Origin: a virus
Virus record (IMG/VR): IMGVR_UViG_3300045988_159706
DNA: 64,000 bases
Strand: one strand, 5' to 3'
The notes beneath the pieces were generated by a model. That model did not search any database, was not told the origin of the DNA, and saw only the letters and a program-made list of their open reading frames with translations. The translations under genes and the position numbers were made by a program. Shown one piece after another: positions 25,878 to 47,262 of the stretch (within the stretch, counting starts at the first letter, position 1; every line of letters begins with the position of its first letter).

Positions 25878-25925
25878 TAGCCCCCTATGTTGGATTCATT
25901 CCAGCGTAGGGGGCTATTTTTTTTT
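25878..25925. terminator. bidirectional rho-independent terminator at the convergence point
   Basis: 10-bp GC-rich stem tagcccccta / tagggggcta followed by T9. It lies between the last plus-strand stop (25872) and the last minus-strand stop (25924). Confidence 0.75.
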
Positions 25926-28900
25926 ATTTTTCTTTTATTGCGTTATTAATATCCTGTCTAAATGGTCTAAACATTCCAAAAGTGTTTACAGTTCCAAGTA
26001 GAGCAGCTTCAGCAAAGTTAACATCTTCAAGTTTAAATGCTGCAGCATAACTTCTAATACTATTTTGAAGGATACTTAAGAATGGAGGATTCCAATTTAA
26101 CAAACCATTAGTGACAGCATTTATTACACCCATATCATCAAGAGAGCGATTAACTAAGTCAATTCCATTACGGAATCACCAGCTTCTATCTGCTATTTGG
26201 TCTTTATACTTTATTCCAGATTCTTCAGGGTCATCCAAAAGCATTATTTGTAATAACTTAGCAAAAAACAAAAACATTGTTAAATCATATAATGAAGCCT
26301 TAAAATTAGCAGCTTCAATATCATTAGACTTAATATATTTTCTTCACAAATCCGTTGTACTTAACTCTGGATCTTTACTAATCATTTGTTTAACATTTGT
26401 ATATACATCCTTAAATAACTGTTGATATGTTTGAAAAATACCTTCCATTATTCTTCCTTCTCATGAATATAAAGGAATACCAGTATCTTCACTAACAATT
26501 TCTGAATTTACCCATGTACCATTAGCATCAGTAATAATCTTAATATATTTTTGATTGCCTTTTACATCTACTACAGGTGTGAAATGCCCTTGGGAAGCAA
26601 CAGTAGTTCTCTTTAATGTATATTGTGTTTTCTTAGCAGATAGATAGGTCATAAACTGTTTAAACAGCATTCCTTGCCATAATTTATTTCATTCTGCTTT
26701 TGTTTCAAGGTCATAATAACCAAAGGATTCATCTGCAAAAGACTTTATAGATTCCCTTTGCAGTACCGTATATGCCATTTCAAATTTGTCTCCAACCTTA
26801 TATAAAGGTTCACCAGTACGTTCACGTTCTACATTAAACTGCCTTAACATAGCTATATAGAGTCCATATTGTTTTTCATATACAGATTTAACTGAATCAG
26901 GTACAGCATGGTCTTTGTATTTTAAATAAACATCGAATCGTTTATCCTTTTCCATATCATACTTAAGTCTTTCAATTCCATCTGAATCCTTATCAATATA
27001 ATGTGCATCAAAGGTTCCATCATGAATCATTTGAGCTAAAAATATAGACATACGATTCCAATAGTCGGGTGCAGTTAAAGCTCATCCAGAATATCTAGAA
27101 AATCCTCCTATAATACCATTTTTATATGATATTGTATTTTCAACCATATTTCTAAGATCCATATTAGCTAACGCGTATAACTCATTTAACAACTCAATCT
27201 TAGTAATTTCAGTTATAAATTTTGGAGAATCATAAATAAGGTATTTTAGTGCTTTTCCGTAATCCTTTATTGTGAAAGCTTCTTTTCCATATCTTCTGAA
27301 CATAGCATTGGAGAGGTTAGTTCAAAATCCCATTAAAACCTCTCTAGGCAAGTTAGCAAAGTGCCAAGAAAGTGCTACACTGGATGCAACAGATCTTAGT
27401 GCAGATAAAGATTTAAACATACCTCGCATTTCTTGAGGAACTAATGACTCGAAATATAAAGAAGATTTAGTCGTATCTGCAATGAATTCCATAATGTTAG
27501 AAACATCAATTCCTGTTAAATTTCCTTTTAGAGATAATGCCGCTTGCATAGCTCTAATCTGGGGAAGTATTTCATTTACATTATTTTTCTTTGCTTCTGC
27601 CATTTTATATGAAGCTAAAATTATCTCCAAATTAGTTTCAAAAGCTCCAATTTCATATTCCTGAATAAGTTTTCTTCTTTTATCCTCATTTTTTCTATCC
27701 TCAAACTCAAAAGCTAATTGATCAAATGCATCTGCTGCACTTTCTTGTTCTTTAGCTCTTTCAGAGAAAGTATCTTTGATAAAGGAATTAAATCCATAAG
27801 CAAAGTTATCATAAAACGTCTTTGCATTTAGATTTCCATTTGTAGCCAAACTAGCTAGTCTAACTCTTACTAAAGGAACCAAGAAATCATTTTCGTCTAA
27901 GTCTGCTCTTGAAGTTTTTCCAGTTATTGTTTTTAACGCAAACTTAATCATTCTTCTTTCAGCTTCACTTAAATCATTACTCATGTCCCAAGGATCTTTG
28001 AAGGTTAAATCAAAAGTATCAGGTCTATAAAGGTTTCTATAAAGGCCTCCTTTTGCACCAATAAAATTACTAGTTGCTATTCCGTGCCCTATAGAGTTTT
28101 CATATAAGGATTCTTCTTTACGTAATTCCCCTAATCAATTCGTATACTCATTTCTAATTTTTTGAAATGCGGTAGCCATAATATTTCTAAAATATACAAT
28201 ATTACTGGAGCGAATTGTATCCATGGAGTTTAACATAAAACTATCAAACCAGTTAGGAAAGCCCTTTCCAAAAAGTTTAGCATAAGTTTTTTCTTCAAAC
28301 ATATCTACATTCTTATAATATAAGTACATTTGTGCAACCCAAGCATAAACTTTTGCATTTTGATTTGATATATCTAAATGGTTAACATCCAATTGTGCTG
28401 TTGTTCTAATTGTTTCAAGAAGGGTTTCTAATCTATCTACTAAATCTTCAGTATTGTTGGAATCAAAATTAGAGGAAATAAACAAATCAGAATTTTCTTT
28501 TATTAATTTATACAAGGCATTTTCTCCACTTTGGTCTATCCTAAATATAGCCATAATTTGATCCGACACTTTATCAATAATTGATACAAACCGTGATTGC
28601 CCTTTATAGGGGCCTTCTCGTAGCGTAGTTAGGTTCGCAGACATAGGGGTGCCATTTTCATCAACAACTAATTGGGATAAAATTTCTTCAATAAAAGTAA
28701 TTTCTTTTTCGTTAAAACTCTTAGATTGAGATTTAAAAGGATTAACAGCACGAATATCTCCTAATTTTAGATTTTGGAAAGCAGGTCTTTCATTTAATAC
28801 TATTAAAGCTTTTAACAATGCAGCATTTCCTCTTGTAGCTTCTAAAGGCAGAATTTTTTTCTGGGCATACTGCTGCTCTAACCATTTGGCATTTGTGGTT

Positions 28901-45700: not shown

Positions 45701-47262
45701 GCCTGAGTAAGTTCAGTCTTACCTCTATCTTTAAGATAGTTGTAGACTAGCTCTCTCAGTGCCATCCTTTCTTCATTTAGATCAACTCCAGTTAATAAGT
45801 AATGTTTAAAGTAATCAAACTGAAACAAAGTATGGAACCCAGTATATACAGCAGTTGAAATTACAGAAGCAGTTTGTCTATCAAACCCGTTTTGAATTGC
45901 GTCTCCATAAGTTTGGGCGGCTGCAGTAGTTACTAAGTAAGCTCTTGCAATTGCAGTACTAGCTTTTTGATATTTATTATAAGCATCATAAGCAGCTTTA
46001 TATTCAGGCATGGATTCAATAATAGTTTTTACTTTAGCAGGAATCTGCCCTTTTTTAAGCATTTCTTTAGTAAAAACCAGTTCCCCTTTTGAAATAAGCC
46101 CTTTTTCAACAGCTTTGTCAAGAACAGTTCCTTGTAGAGCTGCAACACCTGCTTCTAATCTTCTATCCATTCCTAGCATTTTAGGAATATTTGCAACTCA
46201 TCGTTGCTGGAATAGCTGTTGTGCAGAAGTAGAAGCAAATTGACATATGTTATCAAAGGAGAAAGAATGTACTTGGTTATATTCAGAAGGGGTACTATTA
46301 AATTTTTGCATAAACCCTTCAAATTTATTTAAAGCAGAAGAAGGGCGATATTCTGAATCTAATAATCCTCCAAATGTTTTAATAAGAGCAGGCATAGATT
46401 CACTTAAGTACATGGCTGCAGTCATTCCCGCTCAGTACTCTCCTACTCCAGGAATTAAATAAGGGGCCATTACAGCCAATGTTCTTGCTACTGACCTAAC
46501 TGGATTAACCTCTATGCTATCAGTATCAAAAATATCTACTTTATTCCATACACTTCCATCTGTTGTTAATACATCCAGAACACCTAGAACTTGCTTTCCA
46601 TAATATTCCCTTCCATTTAAAGTTTCATAATAAAACTTTCCATCAGAATCATATTTGTAATCACCTTTTGAATGCTTAACAATGTTTCCATCAATATCTG
46701 TATGCTCTCCATCCTCATCTCATTGGGCTAATACTAAAGTATCACTAGTCAAAACTCCTAATGCACCAAGATCATTTGGGGTTTTATCCGACCAAGTTCC
46801 ACTTTCAGTATCAAAGTATTTATTTTTTTGTGCAAGTTCTGCAATACTTAAAGCTCTTGGTCCCTCAGTTCCCTCATGGAAATATGAAGTAGTTTCAAAA
46901 GGATTGGATACCTTTTTAATTTCAAAAGTAGGCCCCTTTTTGATATTACTTTTGGCATCTCTGTTTATGTCAAAAGCATCATATTCATAACTATCTTTTA
47001 ACCACTTTTCTGTGTCTAAAGTTGAAAAACTAGTATAATCCTGTAGTGCTTTTGCATAAAATTGATCAAATAAAGCTTCATTAAATTTTCCACTATCATC
47101 TTTGAAAAACTCTTTTACCTTATCGGATTGAAGATAGTCCTCTTTTGGACGAATACTTGTATTTAAAGAGTTTATACCGTCTGCTGCTAATTTGTCAATT
47201 GTAACATCTGTATTTAACAGATTTATAGCAACCCAATCATTTTGTTTAATGTTATTATCCAT
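39790..47262 (-). CDS. giant protein (about 2490 aa) with an embedded SF1 helicase-like P-loop core
   Basis: ATG 47262. Seven track ORFs from 46720-47262 down to 39790-40434 are all in one frame. All gaps were translated and contain no TAA or TAG. TAA at 39790-39792. Motifs GSGVGKS, IIIDEGTY, TTGDILQSG and YTILTRGKNATII. Confidence 0.8.

Follow-up and report, generated by a model that had tools for sequence, protein, structure and literature searches.

Zeta-group crAss-like phages are distinguished by large genomes, recoding of TGA from stop to tryptophan (Trp), introns and homing endonucleases (PMC7886860; PMC12386605). Yutin et al. 2021 described a transcription gene block, TGA-to-Trp recoding and PDDEXK domains in large transcription proteins (PMC7886860). 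The Zeta crAss-like phage Lera (PV725988, proposed 'Echekviridae', Babkin et al. 2025, PMC12386605) lists in its Table S1, in order, a muzzle protein, DUF192, proteins of ~930 amino acids (aa) and 629 aa, a 'RecD-like protein' of 2781 aa, a 2106-aa protein, a homing endonuclease, a 'DNA-dependent RNA polymerase' and proteins of 958 aa and 1537 aa. In phage phi14:2, gp66 (GenBank gp077, 2180 aa) has been crystallised and experimentally proven to be a virion RNA polymerase (RNAP) (Drobysheva et al. 2021); the end of the virion module of this phage encodes a 1797-aa protein, the 2180-aa RNAP and a 1421-aa protein, all of which were found in virions by mass spectrometry (bioRxiv 10.1101/2020.03.07.982082). 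Here we report on four minus-strand genes, called gA to gD, of IMG/VR virus record IMGVR_UViG_3300045988_159706, of which a stretch of 64,000 nucleotides (the window) was analysed. Very probably the region is the transcription gene block of a crAss-like phage of the Zeta group in which TGA encodes Trp, with a RecD-like helicase in the giant product of gA, the RNAP encoded by gB, a protein of 459 aa by gC and a nuclease domain in the large product of gD. CrAss-like phages with TGA-to-Trp recoding, giant polymerase genes that in-frame stops shatter when the standard code is applied, PDDEXK domains in large proteins and a RecD-like giant beside the polymerase have already been published (PMC7886860; PMC12386605), and since Zeta phages, recoding and giant RNAP genes are known, the locus adds little new to the biology.

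With TGA read as a sense codon, the minus strand of positions 25924-47262 consists of exactly four open reading frames (ORFs), each starting with ATG and ending with TAA. These, and the structure at the downstream end of the block, are as follows.

39790-47262, minus strand: gA, 2490 aa, 9 in-frame TGA codons (ORF check)
32128-39786, minus strand: gB, 2552 aa, 10 in-frame TGA codons (ORF check)
30744-32123, minus strand: gC, 459 aa, 2 in-frame TGA codons (ORF check)
25924-30744, minus strand: gD, 1606 aa, 11 in-frame TGA codons (ORF check)
25878-25916, no strand assigned: hairpin, candidate bidirectional intrinsic terminator, near-perfect 17-bp stem with 9 GC pairs (terminator scan)

Together the four genes hold 32 in-frame TGA codons in 7107 codons and no internal TAA or TAG, whereas their off-frames contain 44-253 TAA and TAG codons each (188-253 for those of gA and gB). 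In 200 shuffles of the region no run free of TAA and TAG exceeded 231 codons, compared with the 2490-2552 observed, and the openness of the four frames is far beyond chance. With TGA as a stop, the block falls apart into 36 pieces from stop to stop, of which 27 reach 60 aa or more and 23 reach 80 aa or more, and every one of the 36 shares the frame of its own gene. An earlier first-pass annotation, made from the sequence alone, had proposed the same four ORFs on the minus strand with exactly these coordinates; it had also counted twenty-five standard-code fragments, and the fragmentation is real, the count being an approximation that depends on the length threshold.

The genes are tightly packed, with spacers of 3-5 nt or an overlap. 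The gA/gB junction reads TAA-TTT-ATG, a spacer of 3 nt and not the single nucleotide (TAA-n-ATG) that had been given for it; gB and gC are joined by TAA-TAAT-ATG, and the stop codon of gC overlaps the start of gD in the sequence TAATG, as had been noted. The block had also been placed at the end of the virion module, abutting a convergent terminator; it does close the strand of virion genes on the 3' side, and the hairpin was found there, between the convergent ends of the plus- and minus-strand blocks, with an A-run upstream and T9 downstream; it could terminate both convergent gene blocks. A small Cys-rich ORF at ~25724-25873 on the plus strand stops just short of this hairpin.

Comparison with relatives indicates that gA-gD are real genes in which TGA is read through as Trp. 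Two close relatives share the four-gene layout, namely L001 (75-85% protein identity) and L002 (51-65%), and alignments of the window with both contain 59 columns with TGA in at least one genome. Of these, 33 hold only TGA or TGG, 9 hold TGA in all three genomes, and to the remaining 17 mostly Tyr, Phe, Leu or Ile codons are added. The more distant GenBank record MT835470.1 (also L004, ~26% identity) uses the standard code here and has uninterrupted ORFs of 2970, 2281+991, 809 and 1529 aa. Of its 14 residues aligned with TGA codons of the window, 6 are W, a residue with a background of ~1%, and 3 more are Y or F, with single ORFs spanning these positions; along gA aa 3-890, W stands at two of the five TGA positions and Y at a third. 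A standard-code ORF of the same record aligns with gD aa 300-1446 in one piece. In L011, likewise of standard code, the gA homologue has 2860 aa and the polymerase 3069 aa, and neither contains a TGA. Homologue ends, which the first-pass annotation had singled out as informative, thus do not match those of the fragments, the ORFs of uninterrupted relatives reaching 2860-3069 aa, and read-through is therefore favoured. The Trp content of the four genes is 0.53% when TGG alone is counted and 0.98% when TGA is included. Throughout the window, genes end in TAA (40) or TAG (2), and ORFs on both strands lengthen when TGA is taken as sense, with almost no gain for TAG and a much smaller one for TAA.

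The consequences for annotation are visible in the databases. Clusters for the block genes include 'hypothetical protein' entries of 206, 280 and 1359 aa (NCBI, IMG), and the full-length translations of 2490 aa and 2552 aa are already in public protein collections beside the standard-code fragments. As had been foreseen, standard-code annotation yields 'hypothetical protein' pieces and splits domains: TGA codons fall inside both the RNAP core of gB and the PD-(D/E)XK domain of gD. A common human-gut phage is in this way mis-annotated by standard-code pipelines, and its largest enzymes, including the polymerase that would start infection, become dozens of 'hypothetical proteins'; translation with code 4 recovers the polymerase, the helicase and the nuclease.

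The predicted product of gB is a crAss-type single-chain (virion-type) DNA-dependent RNAP whose homology to the virion RNAPs of phi14:2 and of phage crAss001 extends over almost the entire protein. A virion RNAP had been proposed for the block with no gene named; the polymerase is the second gene, 32128-39786. It has 14 database relatives, the remote ones being 3000-3600 aa long with 21-27% identity. Compared by hhalign, the gB family profile matches crAss001 gp50 with a probability of 95.9% (E 6e-9, 1983 columns) and phi14:2 gp66 with 95.0% (E 4e-8, 1918 columns), while three unrelated giant proteins of crAss001, used as controls, gave 0.1-0.2%. The segments that carry the assignment are listed below.

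34624-34638, minus strand: codons of the gB catalytic DxDxD, D1717-Y-D-V-D1721 in GSDYDVDK (invariance, alignment, translation verified)
33880-33921, minus strand: VGKEVIGIVASAIK, gB segment aligned with the bridge helix (hhalign block to gp66 1538-1553)
33679-33735, minus strand: SSLLSQATDNAKNPILNNI, gB segment aligned with the trigger loop (hhalign block to gp66 1603-1624)

The family has invariant islands at RIPAQ, GSDxDxDK (D1717, D1719, D1721), VGK..IGI and S..ATDNAK, and in 13 members G1715, D1717, D1719 and D1721 are invariant, as are S2022, D2026, N2027, A2028 and K2029. GSDYDVDK aligns with 1361-DFDID-1365 of phi14:2 gp66 and with GSDFDVDK of crAss001 gp50. The bridge helix of gp66 comprises residues 1529-1559 and its trigger loop residues 1598-1636 (bioRxiv 10.1101/2020.03.07.982082), and LLSQATDNAKNPIL of gB falls within this trigger loop in a high-confidence hhalign block. 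The likeness to gp66 thus extends from the profile homology to GSD(F/Y)D(I/V)DK, the preceding RIPxQ strand, the segments aligned with the bridge helix and trigger loop, and the giant single chain, and a two-barrel architecture of double-psi beta-barrels (DPBBs) is inferred for gB from this homology. Unlike gp66, gB is 370 residues longer, and the two share only ~13% identity.

The gB gene is free of introns, so the RNAP gene of the window is uninterrupted, in contrast to those of Lera, L002, L004 and L010, which are split. In the last three the polymerase gene is interrupted within the codons for GSDY|D(I/V)DK, at 15101-15694 of L002, 18327-19364 of L004 (MT835470.1) and 23744-24663 of L010. 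The L002 insert consists of two tandem group I introns lacking ORFs around a micro-exon of ~9-10 nt, the exact splice sites not being fixable; the inserts of L004 and L010 encode LAGLIDADG endonucleases. The DxDxD-coding site of the polymerase gene is therefore a recurrent landing site of group I introns in relatives, and the window carries the uninterrupted allele.

Directly upstream of gB lies gA, whose family counts no fewer than 589 homologues of 2400-3500 aa; in all related loci inspected (L001, L002, MT835470.1, L010 and L011) the gA homologue immediately precedes the polymerase gene. Coverage by phmmer of remote homologues is best for the N-terminal ~900 aa and lower in the centre, and the C-terminal ~700 aa are lineage-specific. 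Two parts of the protein can be delimited.

44563-47262, minus strand: conserved N-terminal region of gA (aa 1-900), with 5 of the 9 TGA codons (phmmer coverage)
42088-43155, minus strand: helicase core of gA (aa ~1370-1725; superfamily 1 (SF1) motifs, structure model and fold search)

The core is predicted to form an intact RecD-like SF1B helicase in a RecA-like two-domain fold. It contains a Q motif, Walker A (GSGVGKS), Walker B (IIDEG), motif III (TGDxxQ), motif IV (R), motif V (QGQEFD) and motif VI (TRGK), all verified in the translation, and each of 69 family members keeps Q1374, G1423, G1425, K1426, D1538, E1539, G1566, D1567, Q1570, R1599, G1689, T1718 and R1722. Searches of Pfam and PHROG with gA gave AAA_19 and nothing else. 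An AlphaFold2 (AF2) model of aa 1101-2005 reached a mean predicted local distance difference test score (pLDDT) of 79.8, and Foldseek placed RecD (3k70_D) and RecD2 (3e1s) at the top with E ~5e-7; the template modelling scores (TM-scores) of 0.17-0.32 are low because of the extra domains. Among BFVD models, the top match is a 'RecD-like protein [Siphoviridae sp. gcode 4]' (E 1e-22). The likeness to RecD and RecD2 accordingly lies in the full SF1 motif set and the nearest folds; unlike in those enzymes, the helicase of gA is a module of ~450 aa within a protein of 2490 aa that has a conserved N-terminus of 900 aa.

The two remaining genes complete the block. gC is kept in position and length in both close relatives (460 aa and 75% identity in L001, 457 aa and 57% in L002) and has no match in Pfam or PHROG. 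The N-terminus of gD is predicted to be a RecB-like PD-(D/E)XK nuclease domain.

29635-30132, minus strand: PD-(D/E)XK motif set of gD, split by TGA at aa 257 and 352

The set comprises the GEF helix (213), GKLD (328), YDIK (341-343) and YQQAFY, which corresponds to QxxxY (362-367), all verified in the translation, and it is conserved in homologues down to 57% identity. The Pfam PDDEXK_1 match of gD itself is weak (18.3 bits, against a curated cutoff of 22 bits), the homologue P0147 carries PF12705, and a search of PDB sequences with gD and with the muzzle protein of the window gave nothing relevant. As in the large transcription proteins described by Yutin et al., a PDDEXK domain is found in a large protein of the block. 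A Kyte-Doolittle scan found one hydrophobic helix in gD, near aa 1485, and no strong membrane segment in gA-gC, for which a channel-forming role is not supported.

The crAss hallmark examined was the muzzle protein, the major capsid protein, portal and TerL genes lying outside the window.

58199-63010, minus strand: crAss muzzle (tail stabilisation/Tstab) protein, 1603 aa (Pfam PF25731 crAss_MUZ, E 1.2e-25, 90 bits against a cutoff of 27)

This gene lies upstream on the minus strand, so that the tail genes precede gA-gD and share their strand. A DUF192 gene follows it, the order muzzle, DUF192, RecD-like and RNAP also occurs in L010 and L011, and the gene order is conserved in L001, L002, L010 and L011. 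Replication and nucleotide metabolism are represented in the plus-strand block and the 10 kb that precede the window by genes for DnaB, PolA, a Toprim protein resembling primases, an SF1 helicase, an ATP-dependent ligase, PNKP, a PDDEXK nuclease, an AAA ATPase, a class II-like ribonucleotide reductase (RNR), a dUTPase and a dNMP kinase; such a replication set is crAss-type according to Yutin et al. (PMC7886860). The same or close phages (~90% protein identity or more) occur as contigs of 166-178 kb in hundreds of data sets, and a tblastn search of 50,697 GenBank phage records with gA and gB found only MT835470.1 and MT835492.1, both unannotated and of human-faecal origin. The crAss_MUZ match, the homology of gB to the virion RNAPs of phi14:2 and crAss001 and the replication set bear out the crAss-like reading of the first-pass annotation, and the assignment of the phage to Crassvirales by these sequence criteria is firm. 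Membership in the Zeta group is probable, judging by gene order, large contigs, TGA as Trp, and introns and homing endonucleases.

Compared with the Lera/Zeta block, the window agrees in gene order and sizes, in TGA as Trp and in the presence of group I introns and homing endonucleases, the match of the genes being one of order, sizes and names alone. The shared order runs from muzzle and DUF192 through genes of ~1400 aa and ~620 aa to the RecD-like giant, the RNAP and a protein of ~1500-1600 aa. The window differs in having the 459-aa gene gC between the RNAP gene and the last large gene, and in that its recoding reaches the replication genes. The layout resembles that of phi14:2, in which the polymerase gene likewise lies between large genes at the end of the virion module; the neighbours of the phi14:2 gene, gp076 and gp078, have no detectable homology to gA and gD, which lack a zincin motif and have helicase and nuclease domains instead. 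With crAss001 the phage shares the muzzle family and a homologous polymerase, gp50, with three motifs aligned, and each has one nuclease-like giant, crAss001 gp47 matching phrog_298 'exonuclease' and gD bearing PD-(D/E)XK motifs. In crAss001, however, gp49 and gp50 lie on the opposite strand and convergent with gp47, whereas the four genes of the window are co-directional; its giants lack a helicase domain, and the standard code is used.

Several results weigh against the reading of the region as a recoded Zeta-type transcription block with a virion-type RNAP. The first, beta-like DPBB of gB aligned only at low confidence, and neither it nor the cleft-blocking domain of gp66 could be confidently aligned; the AF2 model of the TGA-free gB fragment aa 1523-1791 was unusable (pLDDT 45); and single-sequence searches with gB gave no match in Pfam, PHROG or PDB, a HMMER search of PDB with the family profile also returning nothing relevant. 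The gA and gD profiles matched crAss001 gp44-gp49 and phi14:2 gp076/gp078 with hhalign probabilities of at most 1.5%, and the zincin HExxH motif of RNAP-flanking virion proteins was found in none of gA-gD; gA and gD were on these two grounds rejected as orthologues of the known RNAP-flanking virion proteins. No tRNA gene, suppressor or other, was detected in the 64-kb window or in the six related loci fetched, and three contigs with the 345-aa nuclease gene of the window had none in the 10 kb that precede it; these scans covered all but ~100 kb of the genome. Lera encodes tRNA-Sup(TCA) (PMC12386605), and TGA would presumably be decoded by a phage tRNA-Sup(TCA) located outside the window, as in Lera. 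Finally, TGA codons in replication genes fit poorly with purely late-gene recoding.

How TGA is read admits three other accounts. If it were a true stop, the block would consist of ~25-36 short genes or be a decayed, pseudogenised region; the lack of a visible suppressor tRNA in the window would agree with this, and standard-code callers do output the fragments of 206, 280 and 1359 aa. Against it stand the common frame of all 36 fragments within each gene, with no TAA or TAG there, the exchange of TGA and TGG at the same columns, the long standard-code ORFs that span these positions, often with W, and the catalytic domains that run across TGA codons; the comparative sequence data already contradict it, and we consider it extremely improbable. 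Reading of TGA as another residue, be it Gly (code 25), Cys or selenocysteine, is scarcely more credible and highly unlikely: in its favour, no tRNA was seen whose anticodon and identity elements could be inspected, but the columns restricted to TGA and TGG, the mostly aromatic or hydrophobic nature of the other codons and the frequency of W in the ~26%-identity standard-code relative all speak for Trp, which the Lera study also concluded for a related phage (PMC12386605). Partial or timed read-through, in which a suppressor tRNA appears after early transcription so that TGA delays or doses the giant late proteins, is a regulatory model proposed for recoded phages; Yutin et al. report that recoding lies mostly in late genes (PMC7886860). 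The model would agree with the rise in the TGA share of Trp codons from 25% in the replication block to 40% in the block of virion and transcription genes, and to 46% in gA-gD. The plus-strand genes (window 1-25723) nevertheless contain 24 TGA against 73 TGG, with 1 in the RNR gene, 1 in that of the SF1 helicase, 5 in that of DNA ligase and 3 in that of PolA, whose products must precede those of the late genes. The code also flips within the family: the RecD-like gene of L011 (GC 33%) has 25 TGG, no TGA and the standard code, whereas in the gA homologue of L010 (GC 28%) TGA makes up 21 of 22 Trp codons, with a single TGG, a pattern suggestive of mutational drift at low GC (28-32%) and not of codons placed for regulation. 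The presence of TGA in replication genes is better explained by a code change across an AT-rich genome than by regulation confined to late genes, and timed read-through seems to us unlikely.

A further question is which products of this transcription block would enter the virion. By analogy with characterised crAss-like phages, gA-gD would be expressed together with the virion genes, and gB would be carried in the capsid, leave it along with the DNA and transcribe early genes independently of the host polymerase; for gB such packaging is a reasonable inference from homology. From their position and tight coupling only, gA, gC and gD might be its co-packaged and co-ejected partners. Only gB is tied to a known virion protein, and the 'ejected cargo' role that the first-pass annotation had attached to the block comes, for gA, gC and gD, from position alone; as gA and gD show no detectable homology to the virion giants, their packaging is not supported by homology. 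We tentatively suggest, as a possibility that we regard with some doubt, that gA itself is packaged and ejected, that its SF1B helicase serves the ejected RNAP, and that gD is a third ejected enzyme, which would amount to a virion-delivered helicase-polymerase-nuclease machine. An ejected gA would unwind the incoming genome to give a single-stranded template, or motor the DNA into the cell. The phi14:2 polymerase transcribes single-stranded or denatured DNA in vitro (bioRxiv 10.1101/2020.03.07.982082), from which comes the speculative idea that a co-delivered SF1B helicase could supply the template; the conserved coupling of a giant RecD-like protein to a virion-type polymerase suggests how such polymerases might obtain melted template. 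A machine of this kind, if real, has not been described for characterised crAss-like phages, whose RNAP neighbours lack these domains. Alternatively, gB may be a virion RNAP while gA and gD stay unpackaged and form an intracellular pair of RecD-like helicase and RecB-like nuclease, possibly acting in recombination, in the processing of DNA ends or in the breakdown of host DNA, or as late-made transcription accessory factors. The complete SF1B motifs and RecD-like fold of gA, the RecB-type motif set of gD, the missing homology of both to the virion-detected RNAP neighbours of crAss001 and phi14:2, and the lack of a strong transmembrane segment in gA and gB all suit such a pair. The genes are, however, wedged between the tail genes and the RNAP gene on the virion strand with minimal spacers or overlaps, their order is kept across distant relatives, and the replication block already has a small SF1 helicase and a PDDEXK nuclease; the exonuclease-like segment (phrog_298) of the crAss001 virion giant gp47 is a precedent for a packaged nuclease, and sizes of 1600-2500 aa with lineage-specific termini resemble ejection proteins. 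We judge the intracellular pair to be rather unlikely.

Apart from the four-gene block, the window contains the following features.

54153-54932, minus strand: free-standing GIY-YIG homing endonuclease gene, 2 TGA codons (PHROG 314, E 1e-18)
49142-53599, minus strand: 1485-aa protein, between the muzzle gene and gA
56998-58206, minus strand: 402-aa protein, between the muzzle gene and gA
19409-19778, plus strand: group I intron inside a ThyX/Thy1-like thymidylate synthase gene (Rfam RF00028, 74 bits)

The GIY-YIG gene sits between the DUF192 gene and the next genes of the structural block. The 1485-aa and 402-aa proteins have no family match and contain glycine-rich hydrophobic segments (e.g. 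AALGLGLDVVSFLPGVGIA); they are possible membrane-active ejection or cargo proteins. On the plus strand, an ORF of 165 codons at 2563-3060 has 4 TGA, no TGG and a TAG end, and may be a spurious gene or an unusually TGA-rich one. The exon ORFs of the ThyX-like gene lie at 18966-19439 and 19810-20265; exon 1 ends in ...GVSHEFVRH and exon 2 has ...SFAQESTRY, so that the intron splits the conserved RHRxxS...SxR motif.

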